From Alloascoidea hylecoeti (Eukaryota): 64,000 nt of DNA. Below are positions 2,109 to 37,014 of the stretch, in pieces. The stretch spans positions 203,527 through 267,526 of the forward strand of contig BCKZ01000010.1 of assembly GCA_001600815.1 (NCBI GenBank). Reading direction: 5' to 3'. How positions within the stretch are numbered: position 1 is the stretch's first letter; each line of letters begins with the position of its first letter. A program made the translations under genes and the position numbers. The notes beneath the pieces were generated by a model. It was not told where the DNA came from. It was given only the letters and a program-made list of their open reading frames with translations, and made no database searches.

Positions 2109-3005
2109 ATGTTTTATATTCGTGCTAACGAAGCTGTTAGTATCAATGCTCCCACGGGATCTGATATGCATGTTACTGAACATGGTTCGGATTGGCTTTT
2201 CTCAGCTTTTTCAGTAATGGCCTTATTTGTTGTTGGTTATCTCCTTTTAACTTGGTTCAAGAAGGAGAAAAGATATGCCTTTGTCTATAATAATTTGGCA
2301 TCCTTGCTTTTAATTATGTATCTTTATTTTATTATGGCATCTGATCTCGGTTGGGCTCCAGTTCAAGCTGAATTCAATCATGTTACTGTTGAAAATTCTA
2401 GTGCTACTCCTGGATTACGTCAAGTCTTTTACAGTCGTTATGTTGCGTGGTTCTTAGCCTGGCCATTCCAGATTGCTAACCTTGCTTTATTGGCAAGATT
2501 AGACTGGCCAATCATTTTTATGAACTTCATTTCAACTGAGGTCTATGTTATTTCTTTATTGGTGGCCTGTGTTGTTCATTCTACATACAAATGGGGGTTC
2601 TTTACTTTTGCTATCGCTGGCTTTATTGTTACTTTGATCAATCTCTACACAAGTGGTCTTAAATCTGCTACAGAAGTTGGTTCAGATGTTAGGGGTGCCT
2701 ACATTAAGTCATTATCAATTCTTTCTTTCTTTTGGCTTCTTTACCCCATTTGTTTCGGTTTATCAGAAGGTGGTAATGTCATCCAACCCGATTCAGAAGC
2801 AGTTTTCTATGGTGTTTTAGATGTTTGTCTATTCCTTATCTACCCAATCATCTTTTTATTTTTTACAAAGGGTATTTCTTTGGAAAGATTAAACTTGAGA
2901 GCATATCTTAACTATGAAGGTCCTAATGAAAGACACTTAGATGAGAAAGAATCTCCTGCTTTGGAAGCAGGAACCGAGTCCGTTCAACCGGAGACTACGG
3001 TTTAA
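2109..3005 (+). CDS. Opsin-related 7-TM membrane protein (Yro2/Mrh1/Hsp30 family)
   Basis: 298 aa with 7 hydrophobic helices and motifs RQVFYSRYVAWFLAWP, WLLYPICFGLSEGGN and FYGVLD. The helix G Schiff-base Lys is absent (DVCLF), so it is not a retinal-binding opsin. Confidence 0.9.
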   Translation: MFYIRANEAVSINAPTGSDMHVTEHGSDWLFSAFSVMALFVVGYLLLTWFKKEKRYAFVYNNLASLLLIMYLYFIMASDLGWAPVQAEFNHVTVENSSATPGLRQVFYSRYVAWFLAWPFQIANLALLARLDWPIIFMNFISTEVYVISLLVACVVHSTYKWGFFTFAIAGFIVTLINLYTSGLKSATEVGSDVRGAYIKSLSILSFFWLLYPICFGLSEGGNVIQPDSEAVFYGVLDVCLFLIYPIIFLFFTKGISLERLNLRAYLNYEGPNERHLDEKESPALEAGTESVQPETTV

Positions 3006-4102: not shown

Positions 4103-4897
4103 ATGAATACAACGTTGACGAATAACCCAAATGAAAAGATTCTACTACGGCACAGAGAAAAGCAAAGGAAACAGATCTATCCCCTTTCTTCTGCAAATGA
4201 TCGCGAATCAAAAGGTTTAACGTCATCTTTCTATGACCCTTCGACGATAATTGCAACATCAATACTTACTGCTTCAGTGCTAGGCGGTTTTTATATCTAT
4301 AAAATGTATCTAAGAAGAATAGCTGAATCAAGAAAATTACCGCTTAGTTTTATGCGTCACCGGACAATGTTAGGATATGTCACTTCTGTAGGAGACGGTG
4401 ATAATTTTCATTTTTATCACACACCCGGAGGAATATTAGCTGGTTGGTATTGGTTACGCCCAGTTCCGAAAGTAAATCAACGGGGATTAGGGAAACAAAC
4501 ATTACATGTTAGATTATGCGGCGTTGATGCTCCAGAACGAAGCCATTTCGGAAAACCGGCACAGAAATGGGGTGATGAGGCATTAGCTTGGTTACGAAGT
4601 TATGTATTAGGAAGAAGAGTAAGGGTGAAACCATTATCTATTGATCAATACAATAGAGTCGTTGGGAAAGTGACAATATTGAAATGGAATGGAAGGCGTG
4701 ATATTAGTGCTGAAATGATTAGACAGGGTTGGGGTGTCGTTTATGAAGGGAAAAAAACTGCTGAATTTGATGGAAATGAACATAAATATAGACGGTTAGA
4801 AGTTAAAGCAAAGAAAAAAAAATTGGGAATCTGGCAACAGGGTGTAAAGAAAGTGGTTACACCAGCAACTTATAAAAGAAAATACAACAATTTATAG
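4103..4897 (+). CDS. LCL3: Staphylococcal-nuclease-like endonuclease
   Basis: TM segment followed by VTSVGDGDNFHFYHTPGG, RLCGVDAPE and DQYNRVV SNase motifs. Confidence 0.9.
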   Translation: MNTTLTNNPNEKILLRHREKQRKQIYPLSSANDRESKGLTSSFYDPSTIIATSILTASVLGGFYIYKMYLRRIAESRKLPLSFMRHRTMLGYVTSVGDGDNFHFYHTPGGILAGWYWLRPVPKVNQRGLGKQTLHVRLCGVDAPERSHFGKPAQKWGDEALAWLRSYVLGRRVRVKPLSIDQYNRVVGKVTILKWNGRRDISAEMIRQGWGVVYEGKKTAEFDGNEHKYRRLEVKAKKKKLGIWQQGVKKVVTPATYKRKYNNL

Positions 4898-9600: not shown

Positions 9601-9799
9601 ACTGTAAGTTCAAATTCATTTATTCATCATTGCAGACACAATGTTGTGGCCGATGTTGTACCCCATATGTGTTAAAAGTAACAACTGTGAACACAAGTTT
9701 AAAATGGGTATGATTACTACCACAGGATCTAGATTATTATTATAGTTCTATTTTTATTTTTTTATTTTTTTAACTTTTCATGTAGTGTAGAAGAGTCCA

Positions 9800-10202
9800 T
9801 GGTGAGTGTGTAAAACTTTCTTCTGTTTTGTGTCGTGACAGGGTGAGTTAATTAGACCCTTTGGCGTAACGGCTAGATACAGGCATTTGACCGTGGTAGT
9901 GAGCGTTGGTATACGAGCAGGAAGACATGACCAGTTCGATCCTCGCTTAGGACGTAATTTCACGAAAGCCATAAAGTGATGGTACTAGTACAGATGTGGC
10001 GAACTTGTAACCGGTGAAAATGAAGACCCGGGAGGCAGACCATGAAAGAATTCAAAGACCTGCTCCAAGTTTGGAGGTGTGCATGCGGCATACTTAGCAG
10101 TTATGGTCAATAAGTTAATTAGCTTTTTGGAAATCCAGATAATTAATCTTATTTGTATTATTTTCTTATTTACAATCAGGCGTAATAGCTAGATACAGAC
10201 AT
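9800..10202 (+). mobile_element. SINE-like element, divergent copy A (partial 3' end followed by a fuller unit)
   Basis: A-box-like TGGTAGTGAGCGTTGG, B-box-like AGTTCGATCC and T-run GCTTTTTGG. The 24-bp tail motif GGCGTAAnnGCTAGATACAGnCAT occurs twice (9863-9886, 10179-10202). Motif order matches 17709-18011. Confidence 0.55.
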
Positions 10203-11613
10203 AAAACCACTTTCTAATTTTCGATATATTTAAATGTGAATGCAATTTTCCTAGTAACTTTTTGGTTTATTATTAATATCTCATATCATATTCACATAAA
10301 ATAGTGCAATAACTACTAATTGTAATCTAAATAGTTCCATATTATAAAAAGAAGAAGAAAATCAAAAGAGATGTATAGTTATAATGATACAAATTGTGAT
10401 TTGGTTTACAAGAAAGGATATCTCATTATCTAATTAATTTAACTATATACTATTAATAATGGCAGATATATTGAAATTAAAATTAAAAATTCTATTCTAG
10501 TTTCTCTTTTATATATATATCTAGTACTTATAATGAATAAGGGGGAACTTACTTATTGCAACTATATGATTAATTTCTTTAAAAATTTAAGAGCAATATC
10601 AATATATCTATAATAATAATAATAAAATTTCTCATTTAACATGAATATTATTATTGTATTATACAATATTAGTTGTTTTCCGTAAAATAAATAAATAAAA
10701 ATTCATTTTAGGTATTTTTAAAGTTATCTCATCTACCCACAATTATTCTAAATCTAAATCTAAATCTAAATCTAAATCCCGTAAGATGTTTCATCATTTG
10801 ATTTATTTCTCTATTTTTCTCTTGTTCGGAATTCTGAGCCTGGTGAAAAAATGTGCAATACTCTTCTAAATGAATTCACACTCTCCTTAAATCTTGAACG
10901 ATTTCTTTAACATTCTAGAGTATTTACTTCTATCACAATATTTCCTACCTACATTTTTCTTTCTAGATGTATGTTAAGAGTTGAATTTCCATTTTGGTTA
11001 ACGAAGAATAGGATATAATTTTGAGATATCGGTTTTGAGAGTAATCTTGTTACAAAATGATCAGATCATAATGATAAGATCATAATGATAATCATTAAAT
11101 TTGTAGAAACTTATGAAATATGCTCAATATTAATTTGTGCATTGTAATTTGATTTGATTTGATTTGATTTGATTTAATAATTTGAAAAACATATTATAAT
11201 ATGAAAAATTGGTTAATTGATTGATTAATATCGATCGGATATAACTTTTGATTTTTGATGTTTATACATTCTAGAAGAAATCAATTTCAATTTCAATTGA
11301 AAAGAAAATAACTAATTTTTGAATTTTTGAATTTTTTTTTGATTATTTTTAAATCTGATAATTTTTTTTTTTTTGTGTCTTAATTGAATAAATGTTTAAA
11401 TGAATCAATTATAAATGGAAGAATGAGGGATAATAATATTATATGTTATTTGATATTGTAATCGATATCTAGAAGAAATTGTAAGTTTAAATTTTGTATT
11501 AAAGGTGGTGTGATGAGATGTATAGCATGACATAATAACCCCGGTATATATTCTTATTACATTACCTTTTTCTTTTTTAAAAATTAGTTAGTATATAAAT
11601 ATAAGGTTGTATA

Positions 11614-13283
11614 ATGAGAGTAATCTTTCGATTTTTTTTACTTGTTATATTAATCATTGGATTTTATTATTCATTTAAAAGGGATAAAAGTACAAATACA
11701 ATAAAAGTTAAAGAAAATATGAGTTTACAATTACAATTACCAAAATCATATGTTATTGTTGTTGGTAGTGGATTAGCAGGATTATCAGCAGCCAATCAAT
11801 TATTAACTAATGGTAAATCAGTTGTTTTATTAGATAAACAAGGTAAGTTTTTTTGATTTTAATGAAATAAAGTATTAATATTAATATTAATGAATAATGA
11901 AAAATGAAAATAGATAAATTAGGAGGTAATTCAATAAAAGCATCATCAGGTATAAATGGAGTTCCAACAATTATTCAAAAAAAACATTCAATTAAAGATT
12001 CAACATCATTATTTATTTCAGATTCAATTAAATCAGGTAAAAATTTAGCAAATAAAAAATTAATTGAAACATTGTCATTAAATTCAGAATCAGCAATAAA
12101 TTGGTTAATTGGAGATGAATTTAAAATTGATTTATCAGAATTAAGTCAATTAGGAGGGCATTCTGCTCCACGTACTCATCGTGGATCAAAAATTCCTCCA
12201 GGGTTTGCAATTATTTCATCGTTAAGTAAGAAATTACAAGATATTGCGAAAGAATCACCATCTAGGATTGTTATTTTAAATAACACAAGAGTTGAAAAGA
12301 TTTTGAAAGAAAATGATAAAGTTATTGGGATTGAATATGTTAATAAAGGGGAAGAAAAAGGGCAACTACAAGGACCAGTTATTTTGGCAACAGGAGGGTT
12401 TTCAGCGGATCACACAAGCTCATCGTTATTGAAGAAGTATAGATCGGACTTAATTGATGTTCCGTCGACCAACGGGGAGTGGACCACGGGAGATGGGCAG
12501 AAGATGGCAGAAGCGATTGGGGGGGAATTGGTCGATATGGACTGTGTGCAGATCCACCCCACGGGGTTTGTAGACCCCAAGGACCCCGACAGCAGGTGGA
12601 AATTCCTGGCCGCGGAGTCGCTGAGGGGGTTGGGGGGCGTCCTGCTGAACAAGCGGGGGAGGAGGTTCGTGAATGAGCTGCTCACGCGCGATGCGGTCAC
12701 GGCGGCGATCCTGGAGGAGACGCGCGGGTCGGCGCCCGTTGTGGACCTGGTTTTGCCCGGCGGGGGGTACGCGGCGCTGAAGAGCCACGTGGACTTCTAC
12801 ATCTTCAAGGGGCTGATGAGGAAGACGACGGTGGGCGAGTACGCGCGGGAGCTGGGCGTGGCCGAGGAGCAGCTGCTGGGCGTGCTGGGCGAGTACGACG
12901 CGCACGTGCCGGTGGTGGGCGGGGGTGCGGGTGCGGACGCGGGCGAGGGTGCGGGTTCGGGCGAGGGTGCAGGTTCGGATGCGGGCGCAGGTGCGGATGC
13001 GGATGCGGACGCCGTGGGCCGGCGGGTGTTTGCCGGCGGGGTGTTCGGGGGCAGCAGCAGCAGCATATGCGTGGGCGCGGTCACGCCGGTCGTGCACTTC
13101 ACGATGGGCGGGCTGCGCATCAACGAGCGGGCGCAGGTGCTGGCCCGGTCCGGGGCGCCGATCCCGGGGCTCTGGGCGGCCGGGGAGGTGTCTGGCGGTG
13201 TGCACGGGGCGAACAGGCTGGGCGGGTCGTCGCTGCTCGAGTGCGTGGTGTTCGGGCGGGTCGCCGCGGGCCTGGCAGCCTAG
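11614..13283 (+). CDS. OSM1: Soluble FAD-dependent fumarate reductase (Osm1/Frd1 family), intron 11843-11913
   Basis: VVGSGLAGLSAA, GGNSIKASSGING, LGGHSAPRTHR, VQIHPTG, EALRG-like ESLRG, HFTMGG and GGVHGANRLGGSSLLECVVFG. The GTAAGT...TAG intron restores the frame. N-terminal signal-like segment. Confidence 0.92.
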
Positions 13284-13800
13284 CTGGGCAGCCTGTGTAA
13301 TTAGCAGTTTATAATTTATAATTTATAATTTATAATTAGCATTCATTCCAGATCCCCTGCCTTCCTCACCTTCACATCTCCCGTAGTATGCTATAGCACA
13401 CACACCGCACTCTCAACATAACATAACCACTTTATACTCTGTCTTCTTCTCTGCACTCCGTCTGTCCGTCTGTCCGTCTGTCTGCCTGCTGTCTTCTCTC
13501 GCCCCTCCCCACGTCTCTCCCGCCTCCTCCTCCCCGGTCCCCCGATGATCAACCGTTACAAACTGCTCCACCACATCAACAATGGGGCCTTTGGCTCGGT
13601 CTCTCTCGCTATCGACACCTCCTCAAACAGCAAAGTCGCCATCAAACGAACCTGTCCGTCCCCGGCTTCCCCGTCCTTCCCTAACGACTCCCATGATCTG
13701 CTACATTCCGGCTTCCCATCTGAAACAACCATCCTTTCAACCCTCCACCATAAAAACATCACCCAACTTTATGACTCTTTTTACCAAGATTCCGACCATT
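12400..13800. other. Extreme GC island with G-to-C strand-skew inversion at ~13300
   Basis: Hand counts: 12001-12060 has 11/60 GC; 12901-12960 has 49/60 GC (36 G, 13 C); 13501-13560 has 33 C and 8 G. Confidence 0.95.
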
Positions 13801-15407
13801 ATTTGGTCATGGAATATTGTTCAAATGGTGACTTACATGATGCCATCAAAAATAATTCTTATCCTTCATCCCAATCCGAAATTATTAATGTTATGACTCA
13901 ATTATTAGATGTTTTGCATTATTCCCATTCTCAGGGTATTTATCATCGAGATTTAAAACCTGAAAACGTATTCATTGATTCAAATGGTAATATTAAACTT
14001 GGTGATTGGGGTCTTGCCACTAATCAAAAATGGTCTTCGGATTTTGAAATTGGTAGTGATAAGTATATGGCTCCTGAATTATGGTATCAATCAAATGACT
14101 ACGATGAAGATGATAAATATGATTGTTCAAAATCTGATATTTGGTCTCTTGGTATTTTATTCTTAACTTTAGTTTTTGGTTTTGCTCCTTTTAAAGTTGC
14201 TAATCAATCCGATTTAAATTTTCAAAAATTTTCTTTAAAATCTGATTATTTATTCGAATTATATCCTGAAATGTCTTTTGATTTATATCATGTTATTAAA
14301 TGTTCTTTATCTTTAGATCCTCATGTTAGAAATTTAAGAAAAATGAAGGAGTGTTTAGAAGATTTGGTTGATTTATATTATTATGATGAAGAAGAAGAAG
14401 AAGAAGAAGATGTTTTGAATTACAATGATGATGTTGATAAAGTAGTTTCATATGAAATGAATACTGTTGGAAATGAACATGAAAATGATGTTGAAATTAC
14501 TGGTTCTGTTCCGTTATTGCTTTCAAACTCAAACTCAGACTCAATCTCTAAATCAAATTGGGATTGGGATTCAGATTCAGATTCAGATTCAGATTCAGAT
14601 TCAGATTCAAAATCTTTGATTATTCCTGATGTTTTGGACGTACCGGAATTAGAATTAAGTGCTTCTTTGGATACTTCTTTAGATTCTGATTTAGACTTTG
14701 AATTCTTAAAAGGGAAACGTTGGGCTGATTTAGATGATGACGATGAAGATTATTTATCATCTAATTATTCAAATGATGTTTCAAATTCCACATCCACTCT
14801 TGTTGATTCTACTACTACTACTCATGATGATTCCAATTGGGATCTTTCAGAACCATTTAACTTTGAAAATGACATTAATGATACAATTGAAACTTCTTCA
14901 ACTTCTAAAATGTCAATGACACCTTCTACTTCTTCTTTTAAACAATCTCATTCTATTACTCAATTACCAAAAAGTTTAGAAATTGCTGGTTCTAATGAAT
15001 CTAAACTTTCGGATTTATTTTCAAATCTTCAAATCTTAAAGAAAAAATCACCACCATCACCATTACAAAATAAAACTTTTTGGAATATTCCATTAAAATC
15101 TCCATTTTTACCTGATTTTAAAACTTCAAAACATAATCATAATCATAATCATAATCATAATCATAATCATAAACATAAACATAAACATAAAAATCATGAT
15201 AATGATAAAGAAAATAAATTTGATTTTGATTTTGATAAAGATGATTTTTATCATCATGATCATAATCATAATCATTCAAATTGTAATTCTTGTGGTAATC
15301 ATGTATCAAATTCAAAAATGTTTCAAAGAAATATAAATGGAAATTGTGGTGGGAATCATGTTTGTATTAATTATGAATGGGGTATATCAATTCAAATTCA
15401 AAGTTAA
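13545..15407 (+). CDS. Ser/Thr protein kinase (Ksp1/Ran1-like) with low-complexity tail
   Basis: GAFGSV, VAIK, HRDLKPEN, LGDWGLA, GSDKYMAPE and DIWSLG. The tail has (DS)n, (HN)n and (HK)n runs. Confidence 0.88.
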   Translation: MINRYKLLHHINNGAFGSVSLAIDTSSNSKVAIKRTCPSPASPSFPNDSHDLLHSGFPSETTILSTLHHKNITQLYDSFYQDSDHYLVMEYCSNGDLHDAIKNNSYPSSQSEIINVMTQLLDVLHYSHSQGIYHRDLKPENVFIDSNGNIKLGDWGLATNQKWSSDFEIGSDKYMAPELWYQSNDYDEDDKYDCSKSDIWSLGILFLTLVFGFAPFKVANQSDLNFQKFSLKSDYLFELYPEMSFDLYHVIKCSLSLDPHVRNLRKMKECLEDLVDLYYYDEEEEEEEDVLNYNDDVDKVVSYEMNTVGNEHENDVEITGSVPLLLSNSNSDSISKSNWDWDSDSDSDSDSDSDSKSLIIPDVLDVPELELSASLDTSLDSDLDFEFLKGKRWADLDDDDEDYLSSNYSNDVSNSTSTLVDSTTTTHDDSNWDLSEPFNFENDINDTIETSSTSKMSMTPSTSSFKQSHSITQLPKSLEIAGSNESKLSDLFSNLQILKKKSPPSPLQNKTFWNIPLKSPFLPDFKTSKHNHNHNHNHNHNHKHKHKHKNHDNDKENKFDFDFDKDDFYHHDHNHNHSNCNSCGNHVSNSKMFQRNINGNCGGNHVCINYEWGISIQIQS

Positions 15408-17372: not shown

Positions 17373-17472
17373 ATAGTGCAATTCCTTATCCTTCATGTGG
17401 TGATAATTCTAAAAGATTAGCTGCTTTTATTACGGCCGTTGATAAATATCATGGTGATATTGTTGTTTATTT

Positions 17473-17708
17473 TTTTGTTCCTTCTCCTCCTTGAGCTTCA
17501 CAAACTCTTGCATAGTTTCATTTAATTGCTTAATATAAAGTTCTAAGCTCATTGTTGTGTAAGTGAATTTTAAAGTGTTATAGGAAAATTATTGATCTAT
17601 TCTCAGTTTAAAATTCACTTACACAACAATGAGCTTAGAACTTTATATTAAGCAATTAAATGAAACTATGCAAGAGTTTGTGAAGCTCAAGGAGGAGAAG
17701 GAACAAAA
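17473..17708. repeat. Perfect 102-bp inverted repeat (17473-17574 / 17607-17708), 32-bp spacer
   Basis: The arms TTTTGTTCCTTCTCC...GTGAATTTTAAA and TTTAAAATTCAC...GGAGAAGGAACAAAA are reverse complements, with no mismatch seen. Confidence 0.97.
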
Positions 17709-18011
17709 TGGTAGCGGCGCCGCCACGAGAGGCATCAGGTTCGAGTCCGCCGTAGGACGGTAGTTTACATCAGTCTAGTTGAGGCTTAGTAGGGTAACGC
17801 ATAAATGGCCCGAAAGTAAAATGTCCGAGTCAGTCTGCAAGAAGTCCGAAACCCGCAAGATCACGGGGGTGAGCAGATATGGCGATTAGTAAAGTGACCT
17901 GCCTAAGGTTGGGGGGTGTGTTGGATATATATTACACTCTTAGAACAGTTCACTAAAGGGTCGATTGGCTTTTTGGCGCAACTGGGAGAACAGGCACTTT
18001 GAACTTTAACA
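17709..18011 (+). mobile_element. SINE-like element, copy B
   Basis: GC-richer 300 bp with a perfect B-box GGTTCGAGTCC (17738-17748). Its 3' 94 bp recur inverted at 53198-53291, and it shares motifs with copy A. Confidence 0.65.
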
Positions 18012-18070
18012 CTTATCATTTATATCACAAAGAAATTATGCAAGAGTCTCACTCCTTACGCCATTGAAAT

Positions 18071-29917: not shown

Positions 29918-30004
29918 CTCCCACACAGGGGCTCGAACCCTGGACATTTCGGTCGACTTTTAGGTCTTAAAAGCCGAACGCTCTACCAACTGAGCTATGC
30001 GGGA
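29918..30004 (-). tRNA. tRNA-Lys(TTT) with ~14-nt intron
   Basis: Reverse strand reads TCCCGCATAGCTCAGTTGGTAGAGCGTTCGGCTTTTA-[intron]-ACCGAAATGTCCAGGGTTCGAGCCCCTGTGTGGGAG. Confidence 0.93.
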
Positions 30005-33773: not shown

Positions 33774-35867
33774 TCAAAAGTGAGGAACGTTAAATACCGT
33801 TAAAACCATTGTTAAAATACTCATTATCCCTTCTCCAAGTACTAATCCACTCGAGCATATAATCATAGACACTTTGTTATCTTGATTCTTTTCACCTCCA
33901 AAACTCTCATGTTCACTTCCATTATCGTTTAGGTTGTCATTTTCATTCCCATTTTCGCTTATAATGTTAAATGTCTTATTTGGTTTATTTTGCTTGCGTA
34001 GCCACCACCAAGCTACAACACCTCCAATAAATCTTGCTAATGTGAAACTGGGAACGTTATAGATACCGATTCCAACTGCAACACCACTAGGTAGGAACTT
34101 CACATATTTATGCCATCTATTTTCCTTTGAAATGACACTTTTCAAGAATGATATAATACTAAATATAATACCAAATATGAGAATGAATATTGGAACATTC
34201 TTGGGTAAACCTTGTCCCATCACTAACCTTGCACAATCGATCCAAATAATAGCTGTTGGAATTCTAAATAATTTACCGGGAATCGTATAGATATAATTAT
34301 ATATCCGATATACTATCCCTGATAAAATAGCTGAATATAGTGTTCCAATTAATTGAGCAAAGAATTGTGCTTTAGGAGAAGCGCCAATAAGATGTCCTGT
34401 TTTCAAATCTTGCATCAAATCACCCGCTTGTTGTGCTCCAGCTTCTGCTATCCCACCGGCAATCAAGTTTATCAAAACACCACCCGGGTGTGACTTTGCA
34501 ATTATTAATGTGAAAAGTAACTGTGAGATTTTACCAATACCACTGACAGGATTTAAATCTGTTTCTCCGAGTGCCCGAACTCCTAGGACAGATAAGAAAA
34601 GTGTAAAAATCAAAGCGCTCAAGGTTGCATAAATAGGCACAATTGGCCCAAAGACATATCTCACAGCAGAGATGCCCAATATGGTTGAAAGAGTCAAACC
34701 GGCTACAACTATCTGCCAAGATACCAATTGTGATTTTGGTACATCATCTTCTTTTTCTTCTTTTAACGAGGAAAGAGGAGAAGGAGATCCCATTAATGGT
34801 TCAGAATCCAATTGTAAACCCTGATCTTTTTCTATTGTGGATTTATAGTGCTTAATAAATGCAGCAATTGATTTAACAGATCCAACGATAAATGAAACAA
34901 CACTATCAGCAACCATTACAGATAGACTGACCCATAATATCCAGCCCTGTGCTCCTGTTTTCCAATCATCTACAGGTCCTTCCGCCCATCCATTATATTT
35001 GGCCATTGGAGCCAAAATACCCCAACCAAGTATTGCACCAAATAACATTGAGGATGTAGTATGTAACCCCATTATCATACCTTGACCGATATATGCAGGT
35101 GATGGTTGAAAGTTCCAAAGGTAATCAGAAGATAATTTAGAACCAAATATAGGAAGGACCCGTAATATCGGGACAAAATAAGCAAATAATGTGTAAAAAG
35201 ATGAAATAGCAAAAGAAACCGATAAAGAAATGATATTTTTATGAAAAGTCTCTTGCTCGTGGAAATCTTCAGCAGAAGATTCGGGGACATGGTCACCTTC
35301 TTCAACATGACTTTGTTCTGCAAAATTGATTGGATTATGATGTAATACCTGAATTAGAGTAGCCGTAGCACTCCCAGAAGGAAACGGGAGCTTCTCTCGG
35401 ACAATAGTCTGTTTCCTCAATGGAACAGCAAGAAAGACACCGAAAAATGCGAGTCCGGTACTCCAAATAATAAGCTGACTAATGCTCAAACTTGAAGGTT
35501 GAACTCGAGATGCTCCCGATTCTTCATTTGTCATCATTTTTTCAATGGCAGGGATGATCCCGACTAGACCGAAGGCCAAGGGTCCCGTTCCACAGGCGAC
35601 TGCCACGGACTGAACAAAGACGTTTTCAACTGCGGTGAAAGGACGGGAGGTTGGGACCAATTTGTGGATCAGCTTGAAAATAGCAAACCCCAACAAAGCA
35701 CTAGGCAAAGACATCATCGAAACCCACCCGGTCTGTAGGCCGAACTGGAAATTGGAGATGAGCACACAGGTGCCGACAGCAAGTCCGACAACGACTCCTC
35801 TCACGGTCATTCCGTGGTGATATCCCGGGGAAAAATCAGGCACTCTGCCATTTTGAATATTCGTCAT
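33774..35867 (-). CDS. OPT/YSL-family oligopeptide transporter (YGL114W-like)
   Basis: FGLQTGWVSMMSLP, ENVFVQSVA, LPFPSGSATA, GETDLNP and DLMQDLKTGHL. Confidence 0.92.
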   Translation of the reverse strand: MTNIQNGRVPDFSPGYHHGMTVRGVVVGLAVGTCVLISNFQFGLQTGWVSMMSLPSALLGFAIFKLIHKLVPTSRPFTAVENVFVQSVAVACGTGPLAFGLVGIIPAIEKMMTNEESGASRVQPSSLSISQLIIWSTGLAFFGVFLAVPLRKQTIVREKLPFPSGSATATLIQVLHHNPINFAEQSHVEEGDHVPESSAEDFHEQETFHKNIISLSVSFAISSFYTLFAYFVPILRVLPIFGSKLSSDYLWNFQPSPAYIGQGMIMGLHTTSSMLFGAILGWGILAPMAKYNGWAEGPVDDWKTGAQGWILWVSLSVMVADSVVSFIVGSVKSIAAFIKHYKSTIEKDQGLQLDSEPLMGSPSPLSSLKEEKEDDVPKSQLVSWQIVVAGLTLSTILGISAVRYVFGPIVPIYATLSALIFTLFLSVLGVRALGETDLNPVSGIGKISQLLFTLIIAKSHPGGVLINLIAGGIAEAGAQQAGDLMQDLKTGHLIGASPKAQFFAQLIGTLYSAILSGIVYRIYNYIYTIPGKLFRIPTAIIWIDCARLVMGQGLPKNVPIFILIFGIIFSIISFLKSVISKENRWHKYVKFLPSGVAVGIGIYNVPSFTLARFIGGVVAWWWLRKQNKPNKTFNIISENGNENDNLNDNGSEHESFGGEKNQDNKVSMIICSSGLVLGEGIMSILTMVLTVFNVPHF

Positions 35868-36006
35868 GACATGAAGAAAAGTGTATATGGATCACATCTC
35901 TCGATATGGTCCTAGATAGCGCTCAACCTCCATCCACCCGCATCGCTAATTCACACCACTTGTTCTCTCCACCATCATCGCTGAAAGATTCGTTCAAAAT
36001 TAAGAG

Positions 36007-37014
36007 ATGGATATCGACACAGACCTCAAACCGGTTTCTCCTATCCCACACCAGGATGTACCACACCAACAGATATGCGAACAGCAACAGGAGGGTCTTA
36101 AGGCGATCCGTGTGTTTCTGCAGTCAAAGACCTCCTATGACGTTTTACCTGTCAGTTTCCGGCTCATCGTGCTTGATACTTCTCTTCAATTAAAAAAATC
36201 CTTAACAATTCTATTGCAAAACTCCATCGTATCCGCTCCATTGTGGAATGCAAAAACTTCTCGTTTTGCTGGTTTGTTGACCTCCTCCGATTATGTCAAC
36301 GTTATTCAGTATTATTTTCAGAATCAAAATAAAATAGATCTAATCGACCACTTGACTTTGGATGAATTACGAGATGTTGAAAGGTCTCTCGGTGTGGCTC
36401 CTATAGATACAGGCTCAATACACCCTACTAAACCTCTCTATGATGCATGTTTGAAAATGATTGAATCAAAAGCTCGGAGAATTCCACTGATTGATAGAGA
36501 TGAAAGCACAAAAAGAGAAATTGTCGTTTCTGTTCTGACACAATATAGAATTTTAAAATTTGTTGCTTTAAATTGTAAAGAAACAAGATGGCTTATGAGA
36601 TCAATAAAGGAATTAGATATCGGAACAAAGGGTGAAATTGCAACAGCAACAATGACAACACCTGTTTTAGAAGTTATACAAATTTTAACTAAATTAGGTG
36701 TATCTTCGGTCCCAATTATAGATCCAGAAACACAAAAATTAATTAATGTCTATGAAGCTGTTGATGTTTTAGCTTTAATAAAAGGTGGTATTTATACAGA
36801 TTTATCTTTATCTGTTGGTGAAGCTTTATTGAGAAGAGCTGATGATTTTGAAGGAGTTTATACATGTACTTTTGATGATAAACTTGCAACTATTTTAGAT
36901 ACAATTAGGAAAGCTAGATTGCATCGATTATTTGTTGTTGATGAGCATACAAGATTACAAGCGGTTATTACTTTGAGTGATATTTTGAAATATATCTTGA
37001 TTGGAGGAGAATAG
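36007..37014 (+). CDS. SNF4: AMPK/SNF1 gamma subunit (CBS domains)
   Basis: SYDVLPVSFRLIVLDT, IVSAPLW, VLTQYRILKF and RLHRLFVVD. Confidence 0.96.
   Translation: MDIDTDLKPVSPIPHQDVPHQQICEQQQEGLKAIRVFLQSKTSYDVLPVSFRLIVLDTSLQLKKSLTILLQNSIVSAPLWNAKTSRFAGLLTSSDYVNVIQYYFQNQNKIDLIDHLTLDELRDVERSLGVAPIDTGSIHPTKPLYDACLKMIESKARRIPLIDRDESTKREIVVSVLTQYRILKFVALNCKETRWLMRSIKELDIGTKGEIATATMTTPVLEVIQILTKLGVSSVPIIDPETQKLINVYEAVDVLALIKGGIYTDLSLSVGEALLRRADDFEGVYTCTFDDKLATILDTIRKARLHRLFVVDEHTRLQAVITLSDILKYILIGGE

Follow-up and report, generated by a model that had tools for sequence, protein, structure and literature searches.

A steep GC spike across an OSM1-like gene and its kinase neighbour in Alloascoidea hylecoeti is consistent with GC-biased gene conversion at a persistent hotspot

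We analysed a 64,000-nucleotide stretch of the Alloascoidea hylecoeti genome (assembly GCA_001600815.1, contig BCKZ01000010.1, positions 203,527 to 267,526 of the forward strand; hereafter the window), in which two neighbouring plus-strand genes, an OSM1-like fumarate reductase gene (OSM1 below) and a protein kinase gene, share an abrupt local rise in GC content. This GC spike spans the 3' half of OSM1, the 261-bp spacer and the 5' end of the kinase gene (Table 1), in a window whose mean GC content is 31.7% with a standard deviation (SD) of 8% among 200-bp windows. Judged from its sequences, the host appears to be a budding-yeast-type fungus on an isolated branch: the nearest non-self database match to the threonyl-tRNA synthetase encoded in the window shares 75% identity with it, and its named best matches belong to Saccharomycotina.

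The OSM1 product carries the Pfam domain FAD_binding_2 (E=7e-60) and is 45-50% identical to fungal fumarate reductase homologues, with 50% for its closest relative in the protein search. The exon 2 protein gave no self-match in that search, whereas the threonyl-tRNA synthetase did. A metagenome scan for OSM1 returned 26 loci with full-length identities of at most 48%, and one 72-residue fragment at 67%. With the two predicted exons joined, the 'LLDK' and 'GGNS' motifs regain a spacing that we take to be that of yeast fumarate reductases. Downstream of OSM1, the AT-rich dip is probably its 3' untranslated region (UTR) and terminator, and the C/T-rich remainder of the spacer presumably holds the kinase promoter and 5' UTR. 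The kinase gene is GC-rich and C-ending over its first ~120 codons and AT-rich and T-ending over the remainder. Its C-terminal half (14388-15275) is also rich in in-frame microsatellites, namely (GAA)7.7, (GATTCA)7, encoding DSDSDS, and (CATAAT)12.8, encoding HNHNHN.

Table 1. Coordinates of the features discussed, counted from the first letter of the window (GC3, G+C content at third codon positions)
Feature	Positions	Strand	Remarks
OSM1-like exon 1	11614-11842	+	Hydrophobic N-terminus and start of FAD-binding fold; end read as …CAAG|GTAAGT, splice sites inferred
Intron, 71 nt, phase 1	11843-11913	+	GTAAGT…ATAG, inferred from sequence
OSM1-like exon 2	11914-13283	+	AT-rich to 12383, transition 12384-12563, GC-rich 12564-13283
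In-frame G-rich minisatellite	12917-13012	+	Units of 6 and 24 nt; TRF, alignment
AT-rich dip	13284-13340	.	26% GC; (TTTATAA)x4.3 at 13308-13337
C/T-rich part of spacer	13341-13544	+	C 90, T 61, G 24, A 29; 56% GC; (TCCGTCTG)x3.2 at 13457-13482
Protein kinase gene	13545-15407	+	Pfam Pkinase, E=3e-53
GC spike	12321-13840	.	>=45% GC in 200-bp windows, peak 77.5%
Left graded edge	12250-12583	.	GC3 0.03 to 0.91, midpoint 12417, 10-90% width 331 bp
Right graded edge	13468-13950	.	GC3 0.97 to 0.11, midpoint 13709, 10-90% width 483 bp
Weak GC3 peak of similar shape	35361-36200	.	Centred on a divergent promoter, spacer 35868-36006

The spike is the sole long GC island in the window, all others being at most 840 bp long with a mean GC content of at most 49%, and its 60-bp maximum of 83% compares with 65% elsewhere. 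The zone between the half-maxima (12417-13709) measures 1.3 kb. Within OSM1, GC3 per 20-codon bin rises from 0.00-0.20 (11904-12383) to 0.85-1.00 (12564-13283, minisatellite excepted), and the GC-rich part has 135 codons ending in G and 80 ending in C. In the kinase gene, GC3 falls from 0.75 to ~0.15 by 13900, over the first 120 codons, with 42 C-ending and 8 G-ending codons in the GC-rich part. Codon positions 1 and 2 shift as well, and the change is therefore not one of GC3 alone. Both edges are graded, with a logistic curve fitting better than a step by 10.9 log-likelihood units on the left and by 2.8 on the right. A first-pass annotation of this DNA had described a climb from 18% GC (12001-12060) to 82% (12901-12960) inside OSM1 with G-ending codons, followed by a same-strand kinase gene that opens with C-ending codons and decays to AT, and these figures were reproduced; its argument that a smooth gradient within one open reading frame (ORF) speaks against horizontal transfer agrees with the fits.

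Encoded amino acids follow the base composition. Across aligned residues of the GC-rich part of OSM1, the share of Gly, Ala, Arg and Pro (GARP) is 0.39 compared to 0.24 in 30 homologues, and that of Phe, Tyr, Met, Ile, Asn and Lys (FYMINK) is 0.15 compared to 0.28. The corresponding values for the AT-rich part are 0.19 against 0.19 for GARP and 0.35 against 0.27 for FYMINK. The minisatellite encodes a 33-residue Gly/Ala/Asp-rich insert that lacks a counterpart in all 30 homologues. Faster protein divergence was not seen in the GC-rich part, where identity to 30 short homologues, expressed relative to their mutual identity, was 0.94 compared to 0.92 in the AT-rich part.

CpG dinucleotides occur in the spike at 1.1 times their expected frequency, which indicates no methylation decay. 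Strict or loose G-quadruplex (G4) motifs are confined to the spike within the window and lie on the top strand to the left of the centre (12917-13185) and on the bottom strand to its right (13502-13692), the arrangement that the first-pass annotation had anticipated. We treat these motifs as a probable by-product of GC content plus skew rather than as evidence for function. ARAGORN found no tRNA genes in the spike, and Rfam models at gathering score matched only three tRNAs in the whole window and nothing at 12-14 kb at E values up to 1. The GC-richness also opens long stop-free frames on both strands at 12400-13320, including an antisense frame at 12450-13322 (-) of up to 290 amino acids. Gene callers might be misled by such frames. 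No Pfam family matched any of the three long ORFs that the spike opens in alternative frames.

The transitions were compared with De Bruijn contigs, rather than long reads, that had been built independently of the assembly from two runs of the probable source sample (X1 and X2), an unrelated wood-decay metagenome (X3) and a second isolate from another study (X4). In X1 and X2, a single 3451-nt contig each covers 11186-14370 with 0 differences to the window, and depth in X1 is uniform (55.6). X3 contigs covering 11570-12934 and 13309-14370 also show 0 differences. X4 contigs cover 11186-12665, which crosses the left edge, 12687-13035, 13104-13340 and 13737-14370, with no contig over 13341-13736. 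X4 coverage is 2.3-3.5 in the GC-rich part compared to 7-9 outside, which is the usual GC bias. The spike is thus a real, heritable feature and not an assembly chimera.

Differences between the window and X4 are concentrated in the spike, with 17 in 1035 covered bp inside it and 3 in 3174 bp elsewhere (p=2e-8); if the contig of low depth is dropped, the count inside is 7 in 686 bp compared to the same 3 in 3174 bp (p=4e-4). Nineteen of the 20 differences swap A/T with G/C. Read from the window to X4, which leaves them unpolarised between two genotypes, they comprise 11 AT-to-GC changes, 8 GC-to-AT changes and 1 A/T change. The X4 minisatellite is shorter by one 24-nt unit. Three adjacent bases differ at 12543-12545, TGT (Cys) in the window strain and CAG (Gln) in X4, and 24 of the 30 homologues have Gln; at a second residue, the window strain has Ile (ATC) where X4 has Val (GTC), as do 26 of the 30 homologues. 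At both residues the window state is therefore derived and AT-richer, which shows that erosion toward AT is ongoing and, in turn, that the spike must be actively maintained or young.

The spike coincides with a reversal of strand skew, which we measured with 600-bp arms at 1256 positions of the window. At 13300 the GC-skew flip is 0.79 and the purine-skew flip 0.47, each the largest of the 1256 positions and ~4 SD out; the GC-skew flip tops a continuous distribution in which the next values are -0.70, -0.60 and 0.58. The AT-skew flip at the same point is -0.05, with larger values at 851 of the 1256 positions. Earlier descriptions of a top strand that turns C-rich near 13300 (33 C and 8 G at 13501-13560) around a (TTTATAA)n island were borne out, with 4.3 copies of the repeat in the AT-rich dip. 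The accompanying description of flanks that are A-rich on the left and T-rich on the right applied to the coding part of OSM1 (AT skew +0.16) but not to the DNA further left, which is T-rich (-0.09). The arms are also unequal: G exceeds C for ~2.3 kb leftward, including the OSM1 promoter, and C exceeds G only at 13340-13900 and then reverts, with a GC-skew reversal (-0.70) at 14000.

Most unicellular fungi have a coding strand that favours C in promoters and at 5' ends and G at 3' ends, fourfold degenerate sites and flanks included (McLean & Tirosh 2011, PMC3315797). Two tandem genes would therefore give a G-rich and then a C-rich strand across their junction, as observed here, and the first-pass statement that transcription direction cannot explain the flip is not supported. 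GC skew is +0.26 in the last 300 bp of OSM1, -0.58 in the 200 bp upstream of the kinase gene and -0.44 in its first 300 bp. Pooled over 18 other ORFs of the window, GC skew is -0.03 in the first 300 bp and +0.10 in the last 300 bp, and 13 of the 18 show a rise (p=0.09). The fungal gene-end tendency, present but weak in this window, can explain the sign of the flip, not its size.

At fourfold degenerate sites, the purine share is 0.73 in the AT-rich part of OSM1 exon 2 and 0.67 in the GC-rich part (Fisher p=0.42), and in the kinase gene it is 0.34 and 0.31, respectively (p=0.72). Since these shares are unchanged between the parts of each gene, the GC-enriching process did not create the skew, and since the preference was kept as A-ending codons gave way to G-ending and T-ending to C-ending ones, enrichment ran mainly through transitions. 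In the GC-rich part of OSM1, excluding the minisatellite, G or C occupies 98% of purine-ending and 90% of pyrimidine-ending fourfold sites (p=0.07); in the kinase GC-rich part, the figures are 54% and 69%, a difference that is not significant. The GC-enriching process is therefore close to strand-symmetric. A process acting on one strand per side, such as A-to-G change on the 3' tail of a resected break, was ruled out, with both base classes nearly fully converted on the left.

The skew instead follows the preferences of the two genes. In 17 other ORFs the fourfold purine share ranges over 0.26-0.58 (pooled 0.435); the kinase gene (0.33) falls within these limits and OSM1 exon 2 (0.70, 171/245) outside them, and the two deviate from the pooled value in opposite directions (OSM1 p=1e-16, kinase p=0.002). 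The neighbouring same-strand ORFs at 2109-3005 and 4103-4897 (+) also have opposite shares, 0.26 and 0.58, with no GC spike between them, and gene-to-gene differences in A- versus T-ending preference are therefore common in this genome.

We propose that the spike arose from a strong local bias toward fixation of G and C over A and T, probably GC-biased gene conversion at a persistent recombination hotspot, and we give this reading a probability of roughly 55%. A strong local force favouring G/C would have replaced almost every free A or T in the 1.3-kb zone, with a strength that would fade smoothly over 330-480 bp at each edge. It would have changed synonymous sites and replaceable amino acids alike, and the spacer to a lesser degree. 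The most likely agent is biased conversion at a long-lived double-strand-break hotspot in the OSM1 3' end and the kinase promoter. Transitions on both strands, A to G and T to C, would have made up most of the change, preserving the silent-site purine or pyrimidine preference of each gene and turning A-ending into G-ending codons in OSM1 and T-ending into C-ending codons in the kinase gene. Together with the fungal G-rich 3' ends and C-rich 5' ends and promoters, these retained preferences would give the G-to-C flip at the junction. If the flanks are taken to be at mutational equilibrium, moving silent sites from ~5% to ~95% G/C would need a population-scaled strength (4Ne*b) of ~5.6-5.9. A shift of that size with amino acids dragged along, strand symmetry and smooth fading matches the footprint expected of hotspot conversion. 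The first-pass annotation had also offered a hotspot with strong GC-biased conversion, which stands as the best explanation of the GC spike; the strand-asymmetric engine that it attached to the mirrored skew is not supported.

Three further observations lend supporting evidence to a hotspot. The weak GC3 peak near 35.9 kb has the same shape at low amplitude, with GC3 of 0.48-0.68 in the first ~100 codons of the ORF at 33774-35867 (-) and 0.40-0.56 in that at 36007-37014 (+), compared to ~0.2 deeper in. In 17 other ORFs, GC3 is higher over the first 50 codons than in the middle of the ORF (0.28 and 0.22; 13 of 17, p=0.02), and without the two genes at 35.9 kb the excess is seen in 11 of 15 (p=0.07). 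The third is the concentration of strain differences in the spike.

Several points weigh against this interpretation. GC-biased conversion in yeasts is weak or disputed (PMC9246145): work cited in that paper found no conversion bias in S. cerevisiae, and the paper proposes instead that recombination is drawn to GC-rich DNA. GC content does not peak at the centre of the spike, with 26% and 56% GC in the two parts of the spacer compared to 90-98% G/C at neighbouring fourfold sites, and under the hotspot reading this low-GC centre has to be put down to constraint on the spacer or to turnover of its repeats. With respect to the promoter the spike is lopsided, reaching ~1.0 kb leftward and 0.3 kb rightward. 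If mutation is AT-biased, G/C sites mutate more, so that the composition of the spike would by itself also raise its diversity. The hotspot reading does not account for the outlying fourfold purine share of OSM1, and protein and metagenome searches found no close relative with which to polarise substitutions.

Among the alternatives, the one that survives best, although we consider it improbable, is a GC-biased mutational process without a fixation bias, for example repeated error-prone break repair or translesion synthesis that inserts G/C at a site that is fragile, minisatellite-bearing or prone to R-loops or G4 structures. Strain differences that are 10-17 times denser in the spike, the three-base change at 12543-12545, the unstable minisatellite and the confinement of every G4-type motif of the window to the spike all fit such a process. 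It would need a ~300-fold local shift in the ratio of AT-to-GC over GC-to-AT mutation to carry GC3 from ~0.05 to ~0.95, however, and almost complete conversion on both strands and the AT-richer derived states at the two polarised residues of the window strain argue against it.

Somewhat less likely still is that bidirectional, strand-asymmetric synthesis or repair, through break resection and refilling or at a dominant replication origin, added the mirrored purine/pyrimidine skew on top of GC enrichment. In its favour are the record flips in GC and purine skew at 13300, the opposite deviations of OSM1 and the kinase gene from the pooled purine share, and the slightly fuller conversion of A to G on the left and its reverse on the right. 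Leading strands at yeast origins are C-rich (PMC3459929), and the sign of the GC skew agrees with this. However, the skew runs gene-wide and is unrelated to the local GC level, the kinase value is within the range of other ORFs, similar opposite preferences occur between neighbours without a spike, the arms are unequal and the C-rich one reverts at 14000, and the one-strand-only version was rejected. The first-pass annotation had proposed a fixed point of bidirectional strand-asymmetric synthesis or repair, an inference that the unchanged fourfold purine shares and the conversion of both base classes do not support.

A dominant origin, also suggested there, fares no better. Leading strands in yeast replication are both C- and A-rich, with jumps of ~9% at S. 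cerevisiae origins (PMC3459929), whereas fourfold sites here are T-rich in the right arm (T 95, A 47) and A-rich in the left, so that C and A do not go together. The AT sign is thus wrong for yeast leading strands, the amplitude (79% versus 9%) is about tenfold too large and the skew reverts within 0.6 kb. A bolder extension of the hotspot reading would return some asymmetry to it: hotspots may be self-reinforcing, or "runaway", saturating silent sites over ~1 kb, with a G-rich, G4- or R-loop-prone coding strand on one side and a C-rich strand on the other feeding back on breaks and break-centred asymmetric repair adding to the mirrored skew. In its most daring form, such spikes would occur once per chromosome, at early origins or at GC-rich centromeres of a novel type. 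We regard this extension as speculative and about as doubtful as the strand-asymmetric process itself.

A GC-rich foreign or introgressed segment is very unlikely to have replaced the 3' half of OSM1 together with the spacer and the 5' end of the kinase gene. In favour of such an origin, the segment departs extremely from the base composition of the genome, the two halves of OSM1 (N and C) order their homologues differently (Spearman -0.39), and the C part sits on a long branch in the tree (0.51 compared to a median of 0.08) that joins at a deep node. Nevertheless, the nearest sequences to the C part by distance are still yeasts, and 26 yeast-type sequences form the sister group of the N part (support 0.89). 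Both halves best match yeast-type fumarate reductases, at no more than 59% for the N half and 50% for the C half, with no near-identical donor, and the relative identities of the two parts are alike, as given above. The GC-rich half of OSM1 groups with no distant donor; such a grouping was one outcome that, according to the first-pass annotation, would have refuted its reading. The edges are graded rather than sharp, with reading frame and gene order running through both, and homologous exchange between partners that differ at nearly every silent site seems implausible.

Selection for GC-rich sequence, such as a CpG-island-like promoter or a requirement on mRNA structure, is equally hard to credit. 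The spike does include the promoter, and CpG is not depleted, but it runs 700 bp into the 3' coding half of the neighbouring gene, is weakest in the spacer itself and has moved the amino-acid make-up of OSM1 away from that of its homologues.

We give even less credence to a centromere-associated site of the Candida type, with its skew flip, high GC and local GC dip. C. albicans centromeres do show large GC-skew flips in GC-elevated DNA with a central drop in GC (PMC2924309), with an amplitude of 74% that is not caused by replication (PMC3459929), and the window holds a single strong spike. The GC skew nonetheless runs from plus to minus here, whereas in C. albicans it runs from minus to plus with AT skew reversed (PMC2924309); a 261-bp spacer between two intact conserved genes replaces the ORF-free region of several kb; and yeast centromeres otherwise lie in GC-poor troughs (PMC2997560). 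The earlier suggestion of a centromere-associated site therefore finds little footing at this locus. Least credible of all is a chimeric assembly or contaminant join, a possibility that the first-pass annotation had raised. Nothing was found in its favour, and contigs from three samples in three studies crossing the transitions, together with uniform X1 depth, decide against it.

Other features of the window lie away from this locus. ARAGORN reported a 'tRNA-Stop (tta)' of 87 nt at 29918-30004 (-), with the anticodon loop CTTTTAA followed by a short insert; this looks like a normal tRNA-Lys(UUU) gene with an intron, read one base out of register, and not a suppressor. Two G-rich non-coding islands (9781-10100 and 17641-18020; 46-47% GC, no ORF), the second with a tRNA-T-loop-like GGTTCGAGTCC, had no Rfam or ARAGORN match and may be structured RNA genes. 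At 17430-17763 an inverted duplication carries the same ~38-residue ORF piece (…FTYTTMSLELYIKQLNETMQEFVKLKEEKEQ…) on both strands. A hairpin at 17535-17646 gave a sub-threshold match to the plant microRNA model MIR6288 (64.7 bits compared to a gathering score of 74), almost certainly due to its length.

If the spike is a footprint of conversion, it shows that in yeasts a repair bias of non-adaptive nature is able to replace codon usage entirely and, over a few hundred bases, to alter the amino-acid composition of half of a conserved enzyme, an effect far larger than any described for the GC3 peaks of Saccharomyces. Spikes like this in a culturable yeast would offer a tractable way to measure how strong conversion can become, to follow the persistence of promoter-type hotspots and to ask whether recombination is drawn to GC-rich DNA or the reverse. 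Composition shifts over half a gene can also mimic horizontal transfer, and spikes of this kind depress short-read coverage.

A literature search covering openly accessible papers found no budding yeast with a kilobase-scale spike whose GC3 climbs from near 0 to near 1 over ~330 bp inside one gene. The closest yeast parallel comes from Saccharomyces, whose chromosomes have GC3 peaks at recombination hotspots that have been ascribed to biased gene conversion (Lynch et al. 2010, PMC2997560). These peaks share with our locus a local rise in synonymous GC that is independent of gene function, and the window also shows promoter-proximal enrichment; unlike them, the spike moves from GC3 ~0.03 to 0.91-1.0 in ~330 bp inside one gene and drags amino acids along. 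Runaway GC in gerbils (2020, PMC7403616), interpreted as very high local recombination with GC-biased conversion, resembles it in extreme GC at synonymous and nonsynonymous sites and in raised variation, but the gerbil case involves megabase-scale clusters in a mammal and cross-species substitution rates, whereas this is a single 1.3-kb yeast spike.

With the centromeres of C. albicans (Koren et al. 2010, PMC2924309; Marsolier-Kergoat 2012, PMC3459929), the locus has in common a large GC-skew flip, a GC-elevated region and a GC drop at the switch, and it differs in the opposite GC-skew sign, in a purine/pyrimidine rather than G+T/A+C asymmetry and in having no ORF-free region. The general fungal pattern of McLean & Tirosh (PMC3315797) is followed in the G-rich 3' end upstream and the C-rich promoter and 5' end downstream; unlike that pattern, the skews here are much larger than in the pool of 18 ORFs, and OSM1 is G-rich at its 5' end too, without a 5'-to-3' rise. 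GC peaks at yeast hotspots and extreme runaway cases in gerbils are thus already known, and what appears to be new at this locus is the magnitude of the effect in a yeast.

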